A DNA stretch of 10,113 bases, taken from IMG/VR virus record IMGVR_UViG_2574179916_000007; one strand, 5' to 3'. A program made the translations under genes and the position numbers. Numbering within the stretch: the first letter of the stretch is position 1; each line of letters begins with the position of its first letter. Positions 172 to 10,113 of this stretch are shown here, piece after piece. This stretch comes from a virus (lineage: Duplodnaviria; Heunggongvirae; Uroviricota; Caudoviricetes). The notes under the pieces are model-generated. The model worked only from the letters and a program-made list of their open reading frames with translations, was not told where the DNA came from and did no database searches.

Positions 172-2301
172 CTATTCCTCAATACCTAACCTGCTTGAAA
201 CCTCAGGCATAACAGTAACCTGAAGGGTTTTTGATGAATCTGTGTTTTTAATTGCTATGCTGATATTGTCAGAAGTGCTGTTATTGTTTGACACTGTTAT
301 AGAGTTTGCATCCACCCCGAGTTTCGAATAAGCATCAGCAAAACTAAGACCAACACTTCCACCAACAACTCTATATGAACCATCAATTCTGAATGACGAT
401 ATATTGTTATTGCTAACATCTCTAATTAGAACCCATATAGAAACACCCCTGAAAACAAGGCTTGCCCCTGATGGTATTTGAAGTGATACAATTCCTGTGG
501 AACCGGGGGGGATACTGCCAGTATATTTAGTTCCGTGCAGATATTTCCCCGGTAGGTCTAAATACGATGTGTCTGGATGTAATAAATTATGTATATGTCT
601 GCTATCTATGCTTCCAGACAGAACCATAGAATCATTGCCATATTCAATTATCCTTCCACCATCGTTACTTATTGTAAGTAATCCTTTGTTTCCTTTATTA
701 TTTCTAACAGTTATATCAGAAGAATCCAGGCGGACAATTGATATATTTTTTTCTGATCCATGACAATAATTTGATGAAATTTCACCTGTAACAAGTGACG
801 TACATAAAATGTCTGAACTTCCATCACTGTCGCCAGTAATAGTGTTGCAGGAAATTAATGCACCATATACCAGACCTGTTGGAGATTCTCCAAATTGCTC
901 TATAGTAATCCGTTTTGTGGTATTTGCTGATATGGTTATATTATGAACATCGTCAGTTTGCGATGTTACTTTGATCCTTGATGAAACTGTATTTCCAGAA
1001 ATAGTAACATTACTTGTATCATCCACCCATAAATATGACGAAAACGTATTACCTGATATGACTGAGTTACTCACCATTGAGTTCTCAAGCTCACATGAAC
1101 CATAGCTATTGTTATGGTCATAATTTCCTATAATCCTTACAAATCCATTCTGGTTAATGAAGTTGTATGATGTTGCATTTTGTCCGCCATAAGTTGAGTT
1201 ATGTGATGTTTCAGCATTTGTAACGCCTATATGTTGAAAATGACCGGCATTTACAGAATCAGGAGCAACTGATGTACACCCTATTACTTTTGTGTTTTTG
1301 ACAATTCTTGAATTAGGGTCATTCTCCAAATAATAGTTTTTTGCAACAAATGCCGTAGAGTAAAAGAAACCTTCAAATCTATTAAATAAAATCTGAATAT
1401 CGTCATAATCTCTTTGGTCTTCATTTGCATAGCAATAAAATGCTCTTGAAGACTCGGAGTAATCCTTGCATTTCTGAACGCCAGATAAAAGTGATCGGAT
1501 TCTGCTAGATTTTATTCTAAATCCGTTGTGAATTAACGTTGCATCACCAACTAATGTTATTGGCTTAAACAATTCAACCTTATCAAAAACAAATTCACCA
1601 CCATAAAATCCAAGTATAGCCCCTTCTGGTACTGCATTAATAGCATTTTGAATTGCTACAGTATCATCTGTTATGCCGTCTCCTTTTGCACCAAAATCAC
1701 GAACACTAATGGTGTCTCTCATCTTATCCTGGAACGTTCGGTACACAGCCCCAGAACCATACTGAATAAACCAACCAAAACCACCAACAACCCCGGCGAT
1801 TGCAGCATCGACATAATTACGCATTGAGCGATTATTTACAGCATCCTGCTCAAGTGATGGATCTGCAAGGTTAGAAATTCTGTTTTGCTTTGCATCGTAA
1901 TATTTTGCAAGCAGAGAGGGCTTCATCAATGCACGTCTGAACCACCCAAAACATTGCTGGATCAGCATCGTCAGGTAGTCAAAGGCATCTTCATGCACTT
2001 CGGGGAAAAATTTTCCCTGATTGCGAAGGTCTGTCTCCTGCACTACATCAAGCACACGATCTATCGTAATTCGCCATCCAGTAGCAAGCGGAGACGGAAG
2101 AACCACAGAACCGCCACTATAAGTGCCCGCCCCAGTTACCGTATAACCGGTATCCAGGACCAATTCTGTTACGTTTCCGTTCAGATCAGACACCTGAACA
2201 ACCAGGTCTGATTTTCTGAAAATTCGAAAAGTATACGGAAACGATGTCGTAACGCCGTTACCGGTGTATTCGTTGTGGTCAACTTCGGTTGAGACCGTCA
2301 T
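172..2301 (-). CDS. Phage tailspike / tail fibre protein with T7 gp17-like N-terminal adaptor and pectate-lyase-like beta-helix (putative polysaccharide depolymerase)
   Basis: 709-aa ORF with ATG at 2301 and GGAG about 8 nt upstream on the minus strand. The N-terminal ~150 aa (YTGNGVTTSFPYTF...VVQVSD...) resemble the T7-type tail-fibre N-terminal domain. The motif DFGAKGDGITDDTVAIQNAI is typical of pectate-lyase-3 / right-handed beta-helix proteins. The C-terminal part is Ser/Asn/Thr-rich and the gene is visibly AT-rich. Confidence 0.85.
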   Translation of the reverse strand: MTVSTEVDHNEYTGNGVTTSFPYTFRIFRKSDLVVQVSDLNGNVTELVLDTGYTVTGAGTYSGGSVVLPSPLATGWRITIDRVLDVVQETDLRNQGKFFPEVHEDAFDYLTMLIQQCFGWFRRALMKPSLLAKYYDAKQNRISNLADPSLEQDAVNNRSMRNYVDAAIAGVVGGFGWFIQYGSGAVYRTFQDKMRDTISVRDFGAKGDGITDDTVAIQNAINAVPEGAILGFYGGEFVFDKVELFKPITLVGDATLIHNGFRIKSSRIRSLLSGVQKCKDYSESSRAFYCYANEDQRDYDDIQILFNRFEGFFYSTAFVAKNYYLENDPNSRIVKNTKVIGCTSVAPDSVNAGHFQHIGVTNAETSHNSTYGGQNATSYNFINQNGFVRIIGNYDHNNSYGSCELENSMVSNSVISGNTFSSYLWVDDTSNVTISGNTVSSRIKVTSQTDDVHNITISANTTKRITIEQFGESPTGLVYGALISCNTITGDSDGSSDILCTSLVTGEISSNYCHGSEKNISIVRLDSSDITVRNNKGNKGLLTISNDGGRIIEYGNDSMVLSGSIDSRHIHNLLHPDTSYLDLPGKYLHGTKYTGSIPPGSTGIVSLQIPSGASLVFRGVSIWVLIRDVSNNNISSFRIDGSYRVVGGSVGLSFADAYSKLGVDANSITVSNNNSTSDNISIAIKNTDSSKTLQVTVMPEVSSRLGIEE

Positions 2302-2404
2302 GTTAAATCTCCAGATAGTCGCAGCACCCGTTGCGCCGCATATCTGGTTATTCTATTACCTGAAAAACCATATATGGATAAAAAGACTATAAATACCAAT
2401 AGAT

Positions 2405-2421
2405 ATTACCTTTCGGGTAAT
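2405..2421. promoter_or_regulatory. Operator-like inverted repeat ATTACC-TTTCG-GGTAAT (copy 1 of 3)
   Basis: Perfect 6-bp arms with a 5-nt spacer, 76 nt upstream of the ATG at 2497. The same TTACC-N5-GGTAA core recurs at 3854..3870 and 4914..4930. Confidence 0.5.
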
Positions 2422-2457
2422 TTGCAAAACGTGCTGGATAGCAAACAAATTATTTGT

Positions 2458-2477
2458 TACTGTATAAACATACAGTT
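2458..2477. promoter_or_regulatory. LexA (SOS) box
   Basis: TACTGTATAAACATACAGTT has perfect CTGT-N8-ACAG half-sites and 17 of 20 matches to the consensus TACTGTATATATATACAGTA. It lies 20 nt upstream of the ATG at 2497 in an AT-rich promoter-like stretch. Confidence 0.7.
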
Positions 2478-2496
2478 ATTGCATGGAGAAGATAAG

Positions 2497-2754
2497 ATGC
2501 AGCAGTATCACTATCCACTGGAAGACGGATTTACCGAAAGGATTCACACGCCGGGAGGCGTCAGGTCACTGGTGGAGGGATCGCACTTGATGAAATTACT
2601 CCGGGATCTCGATAAGGATGGATTTAATGTCGATGGCCCACTTGCCGAACTGACTGCACTGATTAACTACGTCACCAGCTCACAGATGTCTATGCAGGAT
2701 CTGCAAACACATCTCGACTATTGTGCCGAACAATTACGAAAACAAACCACATAA
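2497..2754 (+). CDS. Small (85 aa) antirepressor-like protein, a stand-alone homologue of the Ant C-terminal domain; probably SOS-inducible
   Basis: ATG at 2497 is preceded by GGAG 8 nt upstream. The product (LMKLLRDLDKDGFNVDGPLAELTALINYV...MQDLQTHLDY) aligns with the C-terminus of the 4138..4829 product (LMNLLNQLQEDGHDVSGAAAELTTMFCYI...LRDIQTHAEY). The longer ORF-track start at 2374 would place the LexA box and operator repeat inside coding sequence. Confidence 0.6.
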   Translation: MQQYHYPLEDGFTERIHTPGGVRSLVEGSHLMKLLRDLDKDGFNVDGPLAELTALINYVTSSQMSMQDLQTHLDYCAEQLRKQTT

Positions 2755-2776
2755 AGAAAAGGCCGCGAAAGCGGCC
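2753..2776 (-). terminator. Rho-independent terminator for the minus-strand two-gene operon
   Basis: Perfect hairpin GGCCGC-GAAA-GCGGCC at 2761..2776, followed on the minus strand by a U-rich run (complement of AAAGAAAA at 2753..2760). It sits directly after the stop of the 2778..3284 gene and also just after the stop of the plus-strand small gene. Confidence 0.6.
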
Positions 2777-2777
2777 A

Positions 2778-3284
2778 TTAACAGTCGTAAAATTCTGGGT
2801 CCCACAAACTAGCATCGCGCGGCATGGATTCTAACTTTTTCAGCCGCAAAATTCTGTCACACTCGACAACTAATTTTTGCTTCTGCTCGTCAATTTCTAC
2901 TGTCTTATGTGCTGGTTCATCCCAATAATCCAGAAGGAAGGCATGGCGTTCAGATGTGACCAGATAAATCACATACACGTCACTGGTTGGGATCTTTTTA
3001 TGCTTGTTAGTGGTCTTGTCTTTCTTCCCAGACGCCCAGTTTTTCCAGCATTGTTCCGTACCGCTCTCACCAAACTTGTCAGTATAGTTTCCGATGTTTA
3101 CGTGAACGTGGCGTATGTGATATTCCAGCATTTCTTTCGGTGGATCCCGAAACAGAGTGTCCTTTCCGAAATCCTTATGATGACCGTAGCGCCAGTGATC
3201 TATGAACGCGTTTTTGATAGGTATTAGCTCAGGGTCCTTCCCAAAAATTCCAGGGTGAACCAACCCCTGGAATTTATTCAGCAT
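2778..3284 (-). CDS. Putative toxin of a two-gene module (168 aa); tentatively YafO-like mRNA interferase
   Basis: Start taken at the internal ATG (3284..3282), which overlaps the stop of the upstream gene in the arrangement GATGCTGAATAA (translational coupling). The ORF-track N-terminal extension would overlap the upstream gene by about 100 nt. His-rich motifs DFGKDTLFRDPP...LEYHIRHVHVNIGN and VIYLVTSERHAFLLDYWDEPAH resemble, from memory only, the YafO family (FGRD...HIHL...PEPH). Confidence 0.65.
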   Translation of the reverse strand: MLNKFQGLVHPGIFGKDPELIPIKNAFIDHWRYGHHKDFGKDTLFRDPPKEMLEYHIRHVHVNIGNYTDKFGESGTEQCWKNWASGKKDKTTNKHKKIPTSDVYVIYLVTSERHAFLLDYWDEPAHKTVEIDEQKQKLVVECDRILRLKKLESMPRDASLWDPEFYDC

Positions 3285-3693
3285 CGTCGTAGAGCTCCTG
3301 AGCCATATCTTCGGCAGTGCGTGCAAACATCCTGCGCGAGATTGCATGAGATTTCTCGACGGACATCTTTGGGACCTCATGCATAACATTTTTGGGAGTT
3401 GTGTAATAGCCTATTACAATTTTCACACCTGACTTATGATTAATATCAGCATAATATACTTCTTGTTCAGACGTTTCACGACGAACATAATCTGCCAGTT
3501 TTCCACATTTAAATTCCCCTCCCTGATGTTTTAAAATCTCCTCAACTGCACTATTTTCAGTGAAATACCGAATAAGAAATTTCTGTCCAGACTCTTCAGC
3601 ATGAGGTATAACAGTATTATTGGAAGCCCGAACAATGGCCTTACTCAATATTTCATGGTCTTTATTTTTTTCTGATTTCCTCAAATGCTGCAT
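3274..3693 (-). CDS. Putative antitoxin / partner protein (139 aa from first ATG) of the two-gene module
   Basis: ORF ending 8 nt inside the start of the downstream gene. The first ATG (3693..3691) has AAGAGAG about 8 nt upstream; alternative GTG (3723) or TTG (3729) starts would give up to 151 aa. The C-terminus is acidic (EDMAQELYDDAE), as in many antitoxins. No recognisable DNA-binding motif and no family identified. Confidence 0.6.
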   Translation of the reverse strand: MQHLRKSEKNKDHEILSKAIVRASNNTVIPHAEESGQKFLIRYFTENSAVEEILKHQGGEFKCGKLADYVRRETSEQEVYYADINHKSGVKIVIGYYTTPKNVMHEVPKMSVEKSHAISRRMFARTAEDMAQELYDDAE

Positions 3694-3825
3694 TACTGTA
3701 GCTCTCTTCGTGTTCACGGGCACCCCCAACTACCTCTAGGGTAAACATTCTATCGAAAGTATACGCATACTGGCAAAAAAATAGGCAGGTATTTTCTGAA
3801 ATGGGATAAATCAAACCATATAGGG

Positions 3826-3855
3826 TTGAAATAACGTGAGTTATGCATTTATTAT
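3826..3855 (+). promoter_or_regulatory. Candidate sigma70 promoter reading toward ant
   Basis: TTGAAA (3826..3831), 18-nt spacer, TATTAT (3850..3855). The operator repeat copy 2 begins at the 3' edge of the -10 element. Confidence 0.35.
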
Positions 3856-3870
3856 TACCTTTTCGGTAAA
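3854..3870. promoter_or_regulatory. Operator-like inverted repeat ATTACC-TTTTC-GGTAAA (copy 2 of 3)
   Basis: TTACC-N5-GGTAA with perfect 5-bp arms, overlapping the predicted -10 and transcription start of the ant-proximal promoter. Confidence 0.5.
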
Positions 3871-3962
3871 TTTACATTGCACTCCTCTTGTGCCATAGTA
3901 ATCGGGCACTGGCAAAATCCAGTGCCGGGATTGGTCTCCCGGATTACTACAGAGGCACATAT

Positions 3963-3982
3963 GCCGCATAAGCGGTTTTTTT
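3963..3982 (+). terminator. Terminator-like short hairpin plus U7 within the ant upstream region (possible attenuator or sRNA 3' end)
   Basis: GCCGC-ATAA-GCGG(T) stem-loop followed by TTTTTTT on the plus strand. The stem is short (4-5 bp), so this is weak on its own. Upstream hairpins lie at 3905..3926 and 3925..3942. Confidence 0.35.
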
Positions 3983-4137
3983 ATGTGTAAAGCGCACCTA
4001 TTCTATGGTGGGCTGTGTGGGGGCACCGAAAGGTGCGCCGGGTTCCTTTGTAGCCGGTAAGACCAACTCTGCACAGTTCACCACCATCTGATTGGTCTCA
4101 GCGGTGGTGATTAACCTAACTACAAAGGTGATCGCTA

Positions 4138-4829
4138 TGAATACCAAACCTTCCATCTTTTCCTTTGAGTCATCCTGCCAGATCCGTATGTTCATGATTG
4201 ACGGAGAACCTTGGTTTGTCACCAAAGATGTGTGCAATGCTTTGAATATTGATGTTACACAAGCGAGAAAACTTGATAAAAAAGGCTGGAACAAAAAGGG
4301 GCTGTATTCAATACAGACCCCTGGTGGAATACAAGAACTATCCATCGTTTCAGAATCAGGTCTCTACATCCTTATTCTGCGTTGCAAAGAGGCAATGACT
4401 GAGGGAACGAGAGCATTCAGATTTCTTGAATGGGTTACAGGTGAGGTTCTTCCTCAGATCCGCCGCACCGGAAGTTACATTAAAAACTCGCTCCCGCAGG
4501 AAGAACGCATAAAGATGGTTGCCGACCAGGTAGCCAACGCCACAGCATCAGCAGTGATGCAGGCAATGAAGGTAGAGAACAAAACCTACAGCGCCCCACT
4601 GAAGCCCGGCTACCGCAGCCTGATTCATTCGCCGTCTGGTGTTCTCGGCCTGACGGAGAACTCACTGCTGATGAATCTGCTAAACCAGTTACAGGAAGAC
4701 GGGCACGACGTATCGGGCGCGGCGGCGGAGTTGACCACCATGTTCTGCTACATCGTCGGTGTGAGCAAATGCCTGCGTGATATCCAGACGCACGCGGAGT
4801 ACATCAACGACAAAGCAGGGTTCTTCTGA
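4138..4829 (+). CDS. ant: Phage antirepressor (Bro-N N-terminal domain plus Ant/KilA-C-type C-terminal domain)
   Basis: ATG at 4138 with AAAGGTG 7 nt upstream; the ORF-track start at 4092 is a non-ATG alternative. The N-terminus (FESSCQIRMFMIDGEPWFVTKDVCNALNI...SESGLYILILRCKEAMTEGTRAFRFLEWVTGEVLPQIRRTGSY) matches the Bro-N pattern. The C-terminus is homologous to the 2497..2754 product. Confidence 0.85.
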
Positions 4830-4871
4830 CGGGCGGCGGCACAGGGATGTGCCTACAATTATCAATAATTG

Positions 4872-4900
4872 TTTACACTCGTTGCAGTTAAAAGCATTAT
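4872..4900 (+). promoter_or_regulatory. Candidate sigma70 promoter for the 4951..5752 genes
   Basis: TTTACA (4872..4877), 17-nt spacer, CATTAT (4895..4900), in the AT-rich intergenic region after ant. Confidence 0.3.
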
Positions 4901-4913
4901 ACTCATGTTTAAA

Positions 4914-4930
4914 ATTACCCGATTGGTAAA
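4914..4930. promoter_or_regulatory. Operator-like inverted repeat ATTACC-CGATT-GGTAAA (copy 3 of 3)
   Basis: TTACC-N5-GGTAA with perfect arms, between the candidate promoter and the GAGG ribosome-binding site of the 4951 gene. Confidence 0.5.
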
Positions 4931-4950
4931 GTCGATTGGTTGAGGTTCAT

Positions 4951-5277
4951 ATGAGCAGAAGATATGTCAAGGAGCTGGCTATAGAGTCTGGCACCCCTTT
5001 GGGTATCGTTCCTGGCTCCAACTATGCCAAGGCTTTAAACCGAGACTCTGTCGTCAAAGTTATATCAAGAGACATGAATATGGTCGGAGACGATCTCAGA
5101 CGGTCAGAAAATCGTGTTTATGCTGAATATATAGTAAAGAACGGAAAAAAAATTGCAGCGCCTGCTGGCGGAAAATGGGCAATAGTGACAGGGAAAAACT
5201 CAAATGCAAGAGGAAAACCAGAAGCTAAAGGAATGTCCTTCGACAAATATGCAAAAATCTATTGGGCAACCAAGTGA
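4951..5277 (+). CDS. Hypothetical basic protein (108 aa); possible regulator
   Basis: ATG at 4951 with GAGG 5-6 nt upstream; the ORF-track start at 4936 is TTG. Lys/Arg-rich product with no recognised motif. Operator copy 3 sits in its leader. Confidence 0.55.
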   Translation: MSRRYVKELAIESGTPLGIVPGSNYAKALNRDSVVKVISRDMNMVGDDLRRSENRVYAEYIVKNGKKIAAPAGGKWAIVTGKNSNARGKPEAKGMSFDKYAKIYWATK

Positions 5278-5752
5278 TAACGAAGAAACTGAGTTCGAGG
5301 AAGTTGAGGAAGGGCTAAGTAACGAGATCATTCAACACCCAGATGCCTTCACAAGAGTTCTTGATCGCCCTGAAATTCAGGAGATAGTTGTCGCTCACCA
5401 TGCGTTTCAGGGTCCGCTTCCTCCCCCCTATCTGCTTCGCGGGTATCAGGATATTTTACCTGATGCCCCCGAACGCATCTTCCAGCTGACGGAGAAGGAG
5501 TTTGCTCACCGCCAGAAAATGGAGGAAAAGGCACTTGACGGGGCTATTAATAGAGATAAACGTGGGCAGTGGTTTGGCCTGAGTGCAACTATTTTTACAG
5601 TAGCTTGTGCAACATTATTAGGTTTAACAGGTCATGAAGTTCTAGCTGGCACAGTGATCGGTACAGTTGTTGCAGTGGCTGGTATTTTCGTTCTTAGACA
5701 AAAACCAAGCATCAAGAAGAAATCTGAAGACAACAAACCTGAAGAAAAGTAA
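5204..5752 (+). CDS. Hypothetical membrane protein (182 aa): acidic N-terminal region and two predicted C-terminal transmembrane helices
   Basis: ORF overlapping the upstream gene in another frame. Start is ambiguous: ATG 5204 (GGGA about 9 nt upstream) or ATG 5249. Hydrophobic stretches WFGLSATIFTVACATLLGL and LAGTVIGTVVAVAGIFVL are followed by a Lys-rich tail. A conserved-looking QGPLPPPYLLRGY motif is present. A strong terminator follows. Confidence 0.55.
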   Translation: MQEENQKLKECPSTNMQKSIGQPSDNEETEFEEVEEGLSNEIIQHPDAFTRVLDRPEIQEIVVAHHAFQGPLPPPYLLRGYQDILPDAPERIFQLTEKEFAHRQKMEEKALDGAINRDKRGQWFGLSATIFTVACATLLGLTGHEVLAGTVIGTVVAVAGIFVLRQKPSIKKKSEDNKPEEK

Positions 5753-5773
5753 GCCCGCGCTGCGGGCTTTTTT
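5753..5773 (+). terminator. Rho-independent terminator
   Basis: GCCCGC-GCT-GCGGGC hairpin followed by TTTTTT, immediately after the stop codon at 5750..5752. Confidence 0.75.
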
Positions 5774-5845
5774 GTGGACGAAACAAAAGTCAGTGCTACA
5801 CTCATTGACGCCACATTGAGGTGGCTTATAGATGGAAATTTCACA

Positions 5846-6007
5846 ATGAAAAAAGCATTTGCTGCACTGTTCGTTTTGTTGTCTCTGGTAGCTTCAACTC
5901 AGGCCTTTGCCGGTCGTTGTCAGCACGACAGCGATACTGCCGCTGACGGCTCCCGCTGCGGTGGGCGTTCTGCGGATTCCCGCCCTGGCGGCGGTGGCAT
6001 TCGTTAA
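5846..6007 (+). CDS. Small secreted peptide (53 aa precursor with Sec-type signal peptide)
   Basis: ATG at 5846 with GGAAA about 7 nt upstream. The N-terminus MKKAFAALFVLLSLVASTQAFA is a classic signal peptide with an AxA cleavage site. The mature part is Gly/Ser/Asp-rich with two Cys. A possible promoter is TTGACG (5805..5810) with TATAGA (5827..5832). The ORF-track GTG start at 5774 overlaps the upstream terminator. Confidence 0.45.
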   Translation: MKKAFAALFVLLSLVASTQAFAGRCQHDSDTAADGSRCGGRSADSRPGGGGIR

Positions 6008-6035
6008 AAACAAGGCCGCGAAAGCGGCCTGTTTG
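6006..6035. terminator. Bidirectional rho-independent terminator between convergent genes
   Basis: Hairpin GGCCGC-GAAA-GCGGCC at 6014..6029 is flanked by AAAAACAA on one side and TGTTTG on the other, so either strand reads hairpin plus U-rich tract. The hairpin is identical to the one at 2761..2776. Confidence 0.7.
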
Positions 6036-6036
6036 A

Positions 6037-6888
6037 TCACTGTGCAGTTTTCGCTGATCGATTTTCAGCTCTAAATTCAAGAACCGTTTCAATATTTCTT
6101 TCCTTCAGCATATCAATAACATTTTTATTCATTTGACTATCACTGGTTAATAACTGGTAAACGTTGCTTCTCTCTTTATCAGAGTTTTCTTTAACAGCTG
6201 CTTTGCATGCCAAATGCTTATTGAAATTTTCTACATCGCTAGTACAGGAATTTACGGCTGCTGATGAAATATCAGACGCTGAAGAAACACCGTCATCCAA
6301 ACGTTTTATAGCATTTTCTATACATGAGTTAAGGGAATAAACGACAACTGAGCGATACCCTTCAGACGCACACCATTCTAAATTTCTTGAAGGATCGAGT
6401 GGTTTTACTTCGCTGGATTGAATTAACTTGTCAAAAACTGACTTATATTCAATCTGTTTTTTATCTATAGCCCATACTTCAGTAGCTGATTTATAATTCC
6501 CCGTATGCCTATTAACATCAAATCCATGTTTTATAAGCAAATCTGCCCATGAAAGATTTATTGATTCATTGTTATGAGGCCATTTTCCTGTCAGAACCGC
6601 CCCCATAGACCCCATATATCCGCCATATGATGGTATAGCACCATGGCTCAGTAACTTCTCTGCAACCACAGGGCAATTAATTACATAAGAGGCGTAAAGC
6701 CCATTCCATAAAGCCCCTCTATAGTAATCGCCACGATTAGGTTCTTTTAAGTCGATAGCCTTTGATAATTGTTCGCACGTTTTGCATGCATCAAAGTTAT
6801 CCTTATTGCATTGCAATGAACTGGCAGCTGTAGGATTTACAGAGACTATTGAAAGCACTATGCCAAAAAACAAATTTATTTTTTTCAT
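6037..6888 (-). CDS. Secreted or periplasmic protein of unknown function (283 aa), AT-rich moron at the end of the structural operon
   Basis: ATG at 6888 lies 1 nt after the TAG stop of the upstream 1065-aa gene (TAGGATG), implying coupling. The N-terminus MKKINLFFGIVLSIVSVNPTAA is a signal peptide and is not a lipobox. The mature protein has multiple Cys. The gene is visibly lower in GC than the upstream gene. Segments VAEKLLSHGA and ADLLIKHGFDVN weakly resemble ankyrin-repeat helices. Confidence 0.75.
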   Translation of the reverse strand: MKKINLFFGIVLSIVSVNPTAASSLQCNKDNFDACKTCEQLSKAIDLKEPNRGDYYRGALWNGLYASYVINCPVVAEKLLSHGAIPSYGGYMGSMGAVLTGKWPHNNESINLSWADLLIKHGFDVNRHTGNYKSATEVWAIDKKQIEYKSVFDKLIQSSEVKPLDPSRNLEWCASEGYRSVVVYSLNSCIENAIKRLDDGVSSASDISSAAVNSCTSDVENFNKHLACKAAVKENSDKERSNVYQLLTSDSQMNKNVIDMLKERNIETVLEFRAENRSAKTAQ

Positions 6889-6889
6889 C

Positions 6890-9800
6890 CTATTTCATCT
6901 GCTCTTCAACTTTATTTAGTAATGGTGATATCGCCCACAGATTCTGAAAAGGTAGCATTTTACGGACAGCGTGGGTTTGCTGGCTGTCAAATTCTCCGTT
7001 AAGTACACCATTTGCAACCGTCGCGGCATCACCGCCAAGATCAAAGGTAGGACCAAGTAAAGCACCAATAGCATTACGACTCTGAAACCTTGATACCGGA
7101 GGCGCACCAAACATCGCGCCAAGACCAAACCTACCGCCGCTTATGTTCTCAACGGTATTCAGCGGCTCAGAGAGCCAGCCAAGCATTCCGCCCCGGTCGA
7201 TCCCCTCTTTCACAAGGTTATTCCAGCTGTAGTCGATATCGCGACCGCTTAACTTCTGTTTCATCATATAGACCATTGAGCCAAGCGCAATCGTGCCAAG
7301 CGCACCAAGATAGAATGCAGCATCGCCCTGCTGGATACCAGATACTAGCACCCTGTTATGCTGTGCGAAGATAAACGTTTTGAACTGCGTGATCATCTTC
7401 CAGCCTTCTTTACTAAAAAACAGCGGTGTATCACCTACGCCAGGCGTTACAATCACTGAGTCTACATCTTTCAGCACTGCAGACTGGAAAATCTCTCTAG
7501 CGAAACGGTCATCCCACAGATGACTATGCCCGGTTAACAGCCCGTCCATATCCTCTCCGTGCTTCCCGAATTGCTCCCCGATTCGGCGCAGAACATCTTC
7601 ATTGATGCCGACCTGTGCCATCTTCCGCATTTCACTTTTGGAGAGCGTGCCACCAGCAGAAACTTGGCGAGCCGCGTCAAGTATCCTCGACTGCACTATC
7701 ATCCCAGACCATGATTTAAGTGCGCTGTTCCACTGATTCATCAGCGTCCAGTTACCGAATTTCTGCGTCATCCAGTTCAGACCTCGCTCAGCGGCGCTTC
7801 TCCGGCTATAGGGGTCAGTAAGATCCGCTATAGCCTTTGTGCGCGTAGACAGGACATAATCAAGCCCAACTGCCATTTCTCGCAAATCCCTGGTTGCAAT
7901 TTTCACTGAGTCCATATTTTTAAGCATGCTTACCATTGGTCCGAGAGATTTTCTCAGGCCATGCTGCATCATCGGTCGCATCAGATCAGTTGCAGCGGAG
8001 ACGGTCATTCCACCAAGCAAACGGAGGAAGTTAATATTCCTAGCAACTCGCCCGGCACGAACAAAGAAACTGCGTGGATCTTGAGGTGCGCCGTAAGTAC
8101 CAAGCAGTCGGTCACGCATAGCCGTAATATCCCTAATATCAGCCTCCCGTTGCTTCTCAAGAGCTGCACGTCGTTTAGGTGTTTTAGCCTCTTTTATTAG
8201 CCGGGTATATTCCTCACTAACCTGACGGATTTGCTCCCCCATATCTTTACGGCCAAACTGCGCAGTCAGCTCAATTTCTGGTGCCACCTGCCGGAGATAA
8301 CTTTCCATGATGTAGTTAACATCTGATTCAAGAAAATCTTCTATACGCTCATCAGGAATAAGCAGCGTTCGGCTTTTAGTGAAACCAGCCCGACCAACGA
8401 GTCTCTCTGGGATAATATCGGCTGGTACAAGCCCGGAAGGTGCGCCTATTATTTTATTCACGATCTCGTCAGCAGCGTCCTCTGCTTCCTCTCGGGATAG
8501 AGGCTCCATCTGCTTCAGTGCTCGCTCGCGGCTTGCATTCAGCCTTGTGGTTGAATTTGCCCGTTTTTGCAGTCGGCGAAGCTCAGAACGATATTTCCGT
8601 GGATTATCCAGCAACTCCATATGGCGCTGATAGACAGGAAGCTCACTCTTTGCCTGCGCTATATCATCAAGGCGTGTTTTAAGGTCAGAGCTTTCTTTCA
8701 TCATTCTTGCCTGAAGTTTTTCTGATGAAGTCTCGGCCAACTCTTTTTCTATTCTTGTAAGACGCGCCTGTGTGTCAGTCTCCTGAGATATAAGCTTATT
8801 TCGTTTATCCAGTTCTTCCATGAGTAGAATTTTTTTACCAGACCATTTCTCCGCTTCAGCGATTTCACTAGCGAGAGCATCAGCGCGCGGTGCTGATTCC
8901 TCTGCAGTTTTTAGCAATGAATTTATCTTTTCAATTCGCTGACCTGCTTTGTCAGCACCTTTGGCACTAATCCCTTGTATCCAGTTGGCAATTCGCCCTC
9001 TGAATTCAGTGCGGTCGGAAAGTATCTTATCGAACTTATAAATGCGGGGAAGATAACTCTTCGCCGTCACGACATCGATATCCTCAGGAAGGATCCCCAA
9101 TTCCTGCATACGGGCTTTTGTGGTCTCAAAAATGGGGCGGATTCTGGCGGCTGCTTGTGAAACCTCAGGAATATCACTCTGATCACCACGGCGCATAGCC
9201 ATGCCAACAGCTTCATTGAAATCAATAAAGTTCATCCTCTTCACGCCGCGGGCGCTGACAGATTTGCTGTACTGCTGGTAAGCATCACGAGTAGCTTCCA
9301 TCTGCTTATAAAGCATGGCGTCGTATTGCTTAATCTTAGTCTCGACTGCCGTAAACGTAGCCAACCCCTCATCATTTTTGGCGAAGAAATAGTTATTTTC
9401 GGCAAGCTGCTGGTTAATCTGACGGGAAACAAGAGATGGTGATTGCGCCAAGCGGCCAGCAGGAGTGACACTCAACGTTTTGTTAGCAAGTCCAAGTCCA
9501 GCAAGCTGTTCCTGATCGAGTGTGGTATTGAAAACCTGAGCTGCACCAATGCTTTGAGGAGAATCCATACCTCGCAAATGATTACCTACTGAGTTAACCA
9601 CTGCCTCGCGCGCGCTAGGTCCAGCAAGTAGCTGTGCACCAGCACCAAGGATCCCACCAACGAGAGCATCAACAACAACGTTCGATACGCTCTCCATCGG
9701 TGAGCGAGCTTCCTGAGTGGCCTGCAATGCGGCCTCTGAAGCAACACTGCCAGCAGCATTGGCTAAAGCAAAACGTCCGGCTGTTTCTGCAATACGACCG

Positions 9801-10087
9801 CCACGAACGACAGCGCCGAACGGAATAAACATAGAAATCGCATTGAATGGATCTGCTAATCTCATTGCTACAGAAGAGACTGTACCAGCAAATCCCAAGC
9901 CTGAATTGTATTCCATGTCAGCTCTCTGCTGATCGATTCGATGTTTAATTGCCATTGTTTCTTCATGCGAACCGGAGTTGATAAACGAATCTGCAAAATC
10001 TTCATAGCCTTTAATATCTGCTGCATCGTTATCAAATGGGTTATATCCTTCAACCCTGTTAGACTGGCCCCCTGAATCTCCAGACAA
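6890..10087 (-). CDS. Large virion-associated protein (1065 aa); candidate internal/ejection protein or tape-measure-like protein
   Basis: Uninterrupted 3.2-kb ORF. It is predominantly alpha-helical with charged coiled-coil-like central segments (for example [34 protein letters not shown]) and Gly/Ala-rich hydrophobic segments near both ends. It occupies the last position of a structural operon before the immunity module and tailspike. The start is probably TTG at 10087, 6 nt after an in-frame TGA; the next ATG is at 9955. No catalytic motif was recognised. Confidence 0.8.
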
Positions 10088-10113
10088 CCAATATCACTTA
10101 AATAAGTGATAGT

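Follow-up and report, generated by a model that had tools for sequence, protein, structure and literature searches.

Dispersed palindromes in an Escherichia coli prophage of the epsilon15/phiV10 group as predicted operators of the lysogeny repressor Rep

For phages epsilon15 and SPC32H, it is already established that a master repressor (Rep) acts from dispersed operators and is inactivated by a LexA-controlled antirepressor (Ant). In phage P1, a C1 operator (Op51) reportedly lies at the promoter of immI (c4, icd, ant), and C1 operators are said to be scattered; the P1 C1 operator is asymmetric, and it is part of the P1/P7 immI design that a C4 antisense leader pairs with the ribosome-binding region of ant. 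The "stoperators" of mycobacteriophage L5 gp71 are asymmetric 13-mers that act in one orientation within transcribed regions. The Rep tetramer is described as binding palindromic DNA via pairs of N-terminal domains and the Ant tetramer as splitting Rep into dimers (PMC9638917; PMC9986798), and a review states that SPC32H-type Ant is produced after LexA self-cleavage (PMC7380047). Here, we report the analysis of three copies of the palindrome TTACC-N5-GGTAA in a 10,113-nucleotide stretch of DNA (the window, meaning the whole stretch that was analysed) from a virus of the Caudoviricetes (IMG/VR record IMGVR_UViG_2574179916_000007). The palindromes are very probably operators of the master lysogeny repressor Rep, which is encoded outside the window.

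In reverse complement, window positions 1001 to 10000 match Escherichia phage EC.W1-9 exactly (PP445227.1; EC.W1-9 [L001] position = 31760 minus window position), whereas positions 1 to 1000 and 10001 to 10113 differ slightly from it; the window probably derives from a close E. coli prophage relative. The phage is a Uetakevirus of the epsilon15/phiV10 group. A recount gave exact copies of TTACC-N5-GGTAA starting at 2406, 3855, and 4915 (n = 3), with the sequences and coordinates that an earlier note on this DNA, made from the letters alone, had assigned to them. Chance would give 0.03 copies in the window, and none of 200 dinucleotide-preserving shuffles reached three. Identical arms and differing spacers, as that note had claimed, were seen at all three sites. 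Its placement of the sites upstream of small ant, ant, and a gene for a 108-aa protein also agrees with the distances to the next start codon, which are 76 nt at site 1 (small ant), 267 nt at site 2 (the ant encoding a Bro-N domain, with an RNA leader between), and 21 nt at site 3 (the 108-aa gene). The list itself was incomplete, having overlooked a one-mismatch copy (the 3730 site), a LexA box, and a C4 antisense-RNA leader (Table 1).

The full-genome search that the earlier note had proposed found 17 copies with at most one mismatch in EC.W1-9 (40.6 kb; 11 exact and 6 with one mismatch), against 0.78 expected. All but one of the 17 are intergenic, though about 92% of the genome is coding. 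The copies cluster on either side of the repressor gene rep (39460 to 40044, minus strand) and mark the beginnings of most transcription units. Those flanking rep (39326, 39388, 40100, and 40148) comprise two between rep and a divergent cro-like gene and two just 3' of rep, which face the leftward early genes at a TTGACA-17-AATTAT promoter. Of the others, one lies after the cro-like gene, two after the replication genes, two before the small terminase gene, two upstream of the portal gene region, and one before the integrase gene, and four are the window sites. An unbiased palindrome scan (every 5-bp arm, spacers of 0 to 9 bp) was run on EC.W1-9, phiV10, epsilon15, Enterobacter phage Tyrion, and Klebsiella phage BUCT711; TTACC-N5-GGTAA ranked first among palindromes in all five Uetakevirus genomes, each with 8 to 11 exact copies. 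SPC32H has many copies of the motif too. Frequent occurrence throughout the host genome, which the earlier note had named as a sign against its reading, was not seen: in about 165 kb of E. coli chromosomal sequence beyond the prophage, one exact copy was found, inside the yddB coding sequence. By chance, some 4 to 5 copies would be expected in a whole E. coli genome apart from its prophages. One repressor common to the sites, as first proposed, is consistent with the same palindrome recurring phage-wide, including on both sides of rep. The private circuit of three genes was not borne out, as the three sites belong to a phage-wide set of about 15 to 17.

Across 55 distinct exact sites, 42 different spacers were found; they are rich in A and T, and the central base is A or T at 52 of the 55 sites. 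The flanks favour A (39/55) and T (33/55), which lengthens the arms to 6 bp. Conserved arms with free spacers bear out the earlier view of a site for a dimeric DNA-binding protein rather than an RNA hairpin. In the epsilon15 RefSeq record (NC_004775.2), seven protein_bind features are labelled "repressor / lysogeny," all of them ATTACC-N5-GGTAAT. Site 1 is the positional orthologue of one such protein_bind feature ("repressor," epsilon15 19895 to 19911), between gp19 (the small ant orthologue) and the tail-fibre gene. The locus resembles epsilon15/SPC32H (PDB 5D50, 5D4Z) in the 17-bp palindrome ATTACC-N5-GGTAAT, its genome-wide scatter, and a homologous Rep and, for SPC32H, in a homologous small Ant and the same LexA box. 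It differs in that Rep is only 43% identical overall to their Reps and in that those phages are without the C4/Bro-N ant operon, the 108-aa/DUF2335 operon, and the YafO-family pair; sites 2 and 3 and the 3730 site have no counterpart there. On sequence grounds, the sites would be members of the epsilon15/SPC32H Rep-operator family, with which they share the palindrome, a cognate Rep, rep-flanking copies, and positional orthology.

The earlier note had found no binding protein within the window, and a Rep homologue is indeed encoded about 7.7 kb outside it. The product of EC.W1-9 39460 to 40044 (194 aa, WP_000836290.1; helix-turn-helix domain at the N terminus, tetramerisation domain at the C terminus) matches SPC32H Rep (PDB 5D50 chain A; E = 4e-42), and an identical Rep is encoded in the E. 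coli FDAARGOS_497 prophage. Overexpression of the Rep of phage ZX5, also identical to this Rep, abolishes lytic transcription (PMC9782041). The Reps of four Uetakevirus immunity groups are about 42 to 78% identical overall, and much of the N-terminal domain is invariant among them. This includes the segment NLVNRW, which we read as the probable recognition helix. Such an invariant N-terminal domain fits a half-site that is common to all Uetakevirus immunity groups.

Because heteroimmune Uetakeviruses all share one palindrome, the Rep N-terminal domain was surveyed more widely in viral contigs (best 80 of 346 to 380 loci, 24 distinct domain variants). TTACC-Nk-GGTAA preceded the repressor gene by at most about 100 bp in all 24 domain variants and was also present downstream in 22; we estimate the chance rate at about 0.006 sites per 3.2-kb locus. 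Spacing followed the subfamily, with N4 in 16 of 16 "ANYISRC" variants (Pseudomonas type, with a loop insertion) and N5 in 8 of 8 "ANLV(N/S)RW" variants (enterobacterial type). Three TTACC-N4-GGTAA palindromes flank the cI gene of a Pseudomonas phage (L012, 2421 to 2475 and 3322 to 3337; further loci, L093 to L112). The N-terminal domain of this cI is 39% identical to that of Rep (E = 1e-12), and its C-terminal domain is different, on our reading probably of the S24-peptidase type. The Rep-type N-terminal domain appears to read the TTACC half-site from Pseudomonas to enterobacterial phages, and the choice of N4 or N5 appears to follow the loop insertion.

The survey also bears on whether the main binder is instead the 76-aa Cro-like protein encoded divergently from rep, or another phage regulator, which we consider improbable. 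The Cro-like protein matches PHROG 35 ("transcriptional repressor"), palindromes are present in the intergenic region between rep and the cro-like gene, and lambdoid Cro and CI proteins use common operators. However, the TTACC half-site also accompanies the family of Rep N-terminal domains in Pseudomonas phages, where the Cro-like protein is unrelated (no similarity to the EC.W1-9 protein in the comparison made), and spacer length co-varies with the Rep domain subfamily. That the half-site tracks the domain family across hosts, C-terminal domains, and Cro types argues that Rep reads the sites, rather than Cro or a protein encoded in the window. Cro could also be a second binder of the same palindromes, which is compatible with the Rep explanation.

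Promoters were called throughout as consensus matches (given as matching positions out of 12). In a recurrent layout, the -10 hexamer ends on the first T of TTACC. The earlier statement that each palindrome lies just downstream of a -10 element held in part: at sites 2 and 3 the -10 overlaps the left arm (10/12 and 9/12), and at site 1 the case is weak, no match of 8/12 or better overlapping the palindrome. Alignment of site 2 with its counterparts in phiV10 and Tyrion left all 10 arm positions invariant and the -10-like hexamer kept (TTGCAA-17-TATATT in phiV10, TTGTAA-17-TATTAT in Tyrion), with all five spacer positions varying. The counterpart of site 3 in Klebsiella phage BUCT711 has the spacer GTATT and precedes a 50%-identical homologue of the 108-aa gene. 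There, and in the ST512-KPC3phi13.3 (KpST512) phage fragment, TTGACG-16-TAAGAT is fused to the operator, as at site 3. Only phiV10, Tyrion, and the Klebsiella phages were found to have orthologues of sites 2 and 3, and these orthologues are unannotated. The leftward early promoter reads TTGACA-17-AATTAT in EC.W1-9 and phiV10 and TTGACA-17-GATTAT in epsilon15, SPC32H, and BUCT711 (all 10/12), and in the rightward cro-like promoter the operator lies within the spacer between -35 and -10. With the left arm fused to the -10 at sites 2 and 3, bound Rep would exclude RNA polymerase.

The same geometry makes it very unlikely that the palindromes work as RNA hairpins at transcript 5' ends, serving mRNA stability, translation, or protein binding by the stem. 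Every palindrome is able to form a stem of 5 to 7 bp, some EC.W1-9 copies directly precede start codons (e.g., 1877 and 6387), and the alternative promoter at site 3 (TTTACA-17-CATTAT) would transcribe the entire palindrome, so that geometry alone does not decide against a hairpin there. The stems are weak, however (-2.8 to -5.0 kcal/mol), and the copies are concentrated near the repressor gene and within promoter spacers. Transcription from the promoters fused to sites 2 and 3, where the -10 runs into the left arm, would begin within the palindrome, and the RNA would lack that arm. A terminator test of the four window sites found no U tract and none of the four among terminator-like hits. The hairpin reading was rejected on fold energy and promoter geometry.

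Least credible is a dedicated secondary-immunity repressor (Mnt/Arc-like, possibly the 108-aa protein that the earlier note had offered as a candidate) for the two antirepressor genes and the downstream operon only: three sites do precede three transcription units, but about 17 motif copies lie phage-wide, including on both sides of the primary repressor gene, a Pfam scan of the window proteins gave no Arc/Mnt-type domain, and the 108-aa protein was rejected as the binder because its gene, present in three phage records only (ZX5, EC.W1-9, and BUCT711), is distributed more narrowly than the motif, epsilon15, SPC32H, phiV10, and Tyrion being without the gene yet motif-rich (8 to 11 exact sites in phages that lack it).

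Several points weigh against Rep as the binder. The protein_bind annotation of epsilon15 may in turn be no more than a prediction. TTACC-N5-GGTAA is common to all Uetakevirus immunity groups; hence, covariation of operator and repressor within the genus gives no contrast. Some copies precede late genes (terS and the portal region), which is unusual for lambdoid repressors. The promoter assignments are all consensus-based, and no promoter match of at least 8/12 overlaps site 1 on either strand.

Site 1 lies clear of the LexA-controlled ant promoter; on our reading of the alignment, it is about 50 to 65 bp upstream of the likely start of transcription from that promoter and roughly as far upstream of a TAGAAT that is conserved on the tail-fibre strand. 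Alignment of site 1 from six phages showed conserved arms (one mismatch in phiV10) and the spacers TTTCG, TTTCA, TTACA, TTACA, GATAA, and ATTAA. Its centre is 54.5 bp from the LexA-box centre in the window. Site 1 could act in the co-repression of ant, control a promoter directed at the tail-fibre gene, or anchor looping by a Rep tetramer. The LexA box, whose CTGT-N8-ACAG (2460 to 2475) is the sole copy in the window and whose core is invariant in six phages, probably overlaps the small ant promoter. SPC32H and SPC32N differ at exactly two nucleotides, one of which (19960, G to T) destroys the CTG of the aligned LexA box. Mutation of the LexA box reportedly renders Ant constitutive, which agrees with this difference.

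That Rep physically binds the sites, that it represses each of the promoters, and that the circuit feeds back as described here are inferred from sequence. In the prophage, pairs of Rep N-terminal domains would each read one ATTACC-N5-GGTAAT, contacting the arms, with an A/T-rich centre that would not be read sequence-specifically. Rep at site 2 would keep RNA polymerase off the promoter of the isrK/C4/Bro-N-antirepressor operon, and at site 3 it would do so at the promoter of the 108-aa/DUF2335 operon. At the 3730 site, it would probably silence the divergent YafO-family operon likewise. LexA would separately silence small ant in the lysogen. Upon DNA damage, LexA would be removed, small Ant made, and Rep disassembled; loss of Rep would then derepress the Bro-N Ant (subject to C4 control) and the remaining Rep-controlled genes, giving positive feedback. 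As Rep would repress a gene whose product carries a Rep-inactivating module, each of the two, Rep and the Bro-N Ant, would inhibit the other in a loop.

A more elaborate two-antirepressor toggle, in which Rep represses the Bro-N/Ant-C gene (site 2, plus C4 control) and perhaps small ant (site 1) and may loop the DNA, is offered tentatively, and we doubt that it holds in full. The 3730 site and site 2 are 125 bp apart centre to centre (11.9 helical turns), and tetrameric Rep may bridge paired operators (125 bp for this pair, 62 bp elsewhere), looping divergent promoters, including that of the YafO-family operon.

The site 2 operon works like P1 immI with Op51, without being a member of the P1 system. 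The two have in common an operator of the primary repressor that overlaps the promoter of a C4 RNA and antirepressor operon, operators that are dispersed, and a C4 loop that pairs with a downstream ribosome-binding site. They differ in that the open reading frame (ORF) list holds no icd-like ORF between 4088 and 4137 here, the repressor is a homologue of SPC32H Rep and not of C1, the operator is symmetric, and the antirepressor is a Bro-N domain fused with an SPC32H-Ant-like module. The earlier analogy to Mnt/Arc control of ant in P22 immI fared less well. An antirepressor gene silenced in the lysogen by a DNA-binding repressor at its promoter would be common to both, but no arc/mnt-type gene was found, no ribbon-helix-helix genes adjoin ant (Pfam scan, ORF list), and the sites cluster around the primary repressor gene. 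The operator here is genome-wide (17 sites) and that of the primary repressor, and a P1 C4-type antisense RNA stands in place of P22 sar. By analogy, the Rep operators of epsilon15/SPC32H and the C1 operator Op51 before P1 immI would be better models than P22. With L5 gp71, the locus shares one immunity repressor with many dispersed sites, some before late genes; unlike the stoperators, the sites here are symmetric and, where assignable, overlap promoters.

New here are sites 2 and 3 and the one-mismatch site, with their operons, which are unannotated in the records compared. Rep control of these sites would explain how two antirepressor genes and two accessory operons are silenced in lysogens of a widespread E. 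coli prophage type, and it corrects the assumption of a P22-like secondary immunity repressor. It also makes a list of Rep operators available for the engineering of phiV10-type phages, which serve as reporter phages for E. coli O157. The contribution is incremental relative to epsilon15 and SPC32H biology and would not surprise a specialist.

Table 1. Predicted regulatory sites, RNAs, and genes in the window (window coordinates)
Feature	Position	Strand	Sequence or evidence	Remarks
Tail-fibre/tailspike gene	172..2301	-	ORF list, pectate-lyase-like Pfam domain, annotation	Divergent from small ant; possible site 1 target
Rep operator (predicted), site 1	2405..2421		ATTACC-TTTCG-GGTAAT; exact match	Between divergent small-ant and tail-fibre genes
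LexA (SOS) box	2459..2478	+	TACTGTATAAACATACAGTT	19 nt upstream of small ant start codon
Small antirepressor Ant, 85 aa	2497..2754	+	PDB 5D50 chain E, E = 1.3e-47, ~88% identical in alignment	SPC32H Ant orthologue
YafO-family toxin gene	2778-3284	-	RefSeq product name	PHROGs 1651 and 9503 cover the pair
139-aa partner	3274-3693	-		Upstream of YafO-family gene; operon downstream of one-mismatch 3730 site
Probable Rep operator, one mismatch	3730..3744		CTACC-TCTAG-GGTAA (CTACCTCTAGGGTAA)	3 nt past -10 of minus-strand promoter
Promoter-like, 139-aa/YafO-family pair	3747..3776	-	TTGCCA-18-TAGAAT, 10/12	
Promoter-like, isrK/C4/ant operon	3826..3855	+	TTGAAA-18-TATTAT, 10/12	Last two -10 bases are the first two of ATTACC
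Rep operator (predicted), site 2	3854..3870		ATTACC-TTTTC-GGTAAA	Fused to -10 of C4/ant operon promoter
isrK-like RNA with a1/b1 target element and terminator	3893..3982	+	Rfam isrK 74.7 bits (gathering 50)	
C4 antisense RNA, P1/P7 immI type	4001..4088	+	Rfam C4 78.6 bits (gathering 45)	
Large antirepressor (Bro-N Ant)	4137..4829	+	Pfam Bro-N, E = 1.9e-13	Bro-N domain and C-terminal copy of small-Ant module
Alternative promoter-like, 108-aa operon	4872-4900	+	TTTACA-17-CATTAT, 9/12	
Promoter-like, 108-aa operon	4888..4915	+	TTAAAA-16-TAAAAT, 9/12	
Rep operator (predicted), site 3	4914..4930		ATTACC-CGATT-GGTAAA	Fused to -10 of 108-aa/DUF2335 operon promoter
108-aa gene	4951-5277	+	PHROG 10654	Operon downstream of site 3
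DUF2335 membrane-protein gene	5249-5752	+	PHROG 3996 / Pfam DUF2335	Overlaps 108-aa gene

From the left, the window holds the tail-fibre gene (minus strand), small ant (plus strand), the YafO-family toxin gene and its 139-aa partner (minus strand), the RNA leader with the Bro-N ant, the 108-aa and DUF2335 genes, two small accessory genes, and a large virion protein gene (minus strand). More than 20 complete E. coli genomes contain its central 3 kb at 100% identity, and coverage of these 3 kb reaches 80% or more in 29 genomes; a partial or better match to the region was found in 556 of 5,426 complete E. coli genomes.

Within the C4/ant leader, the c4-a1b1 Rfam match at the isrK-like element scores 39.9 bits, below the gathering score of 46.7. 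The C4 loop (4045 to 4053) is perfectly complementary to 4120 to 4128, which overlaps the ant Shine-Dalgarno sequence. The leader also contains GATTGGTCTC twice (about 3929 to 3938 and 4090 to 4099). Residues 149 to 222 of the Bro-N Ant (74 residues) are 42% identical to small Ant (E = 8e-20), and the protein as a whole is 80% identical to ORF4 of phage ZX5, whose overexpression drives that phage towards lysis (PMC9782041). Two proteins with a putative Rep-binding module are thus encoded under separate controls, LexA for small Ant and Rep plus C4 RNA for the Bro-N Ant.

The 108-aa and DUF2335 genes overlap in different frames by 29 to 74 nt, with the DUF2335 start at 5249 (GenBank) or 5204 (RefSeq), and this overlap suggests translational coupling. 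The YafO-family pair is inserted relative to phiV10 and brings its own 10/12 promoter and one-mismatch Rep site; if controlled by Rep, the toxin module would be on only at induction or infection. A Pfam search with the 139-aa protein gave no hit, and the PHROGs of the YafO-family pair (1651 and 9503) and of the 108-aa protein (10654) are listed in the database with unknown function.

Upstream of the integrase gene, a one-mismatch copy (TTACC-N5-GGTAT) is found at EC.W1-9 34244 to 34258, 43 nt from the gene and in the attP region. It sits in a conserved GTGACGGTATTACC...AAAGGTATA context, and its mismatch is kept in five phages (counterparts, L002 26870, L003 26882, L004 28568, and L006 26960); the BUCT711 copy has diverged (ATACC...GGTAA, one mismatch, 12620). 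This copy could serve int as a weak Rep operator, or it could be a site with a role in recombination. The portal-region site was compared in six phages (L001 9730, L002 3252, L003 2932, L004 3969, L006 3175, and L005 34570). In five of them, EC.W1-9 being the exception, a leftward promoter match (TTGACA/TTGACC-17-TACC(T/C)T) encloses the site. This promoter match faces away from the structural genes and towards a small gene; in SPC32H and the E. coli prophage, a tRNA-Arg gene also lies in that direction.

A second motif (AACCATAT / CCATATATGG) near several EC.W1-9 sites was tried as the site of a second regulator and rejected on inconsistent enrichment and position in other genomes. Six phages share an invariant block at window positions 2351 to 2382 (ATTCTATTACC...AACC.TATATG.AT), which holds a lone ATTACC half-site. 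The block also contains a perfect CCATATATGG palindrome, which is not consistently repeated elsewhere in the other genomes, and the tail-fibre-strand TAGAAT, for which no -35 could be recognised. The block may serve the tail-fibre gene as a late promoter that depends on an activator.

The accessory genes, among them those for the 53-aa, 283-aa, YafO-family, and 139-aa proteins, gave no defence-system hits in a PADLOC scan. The two accessory genes at window positions 5846 to 6888 encode a 53-aa protein with a hydrophobic N terminus resembling a signal peptide and a secreted-looking 283-aa protein (PHROG 6118), and two bidirectional terminator-like hairpins bracket them.

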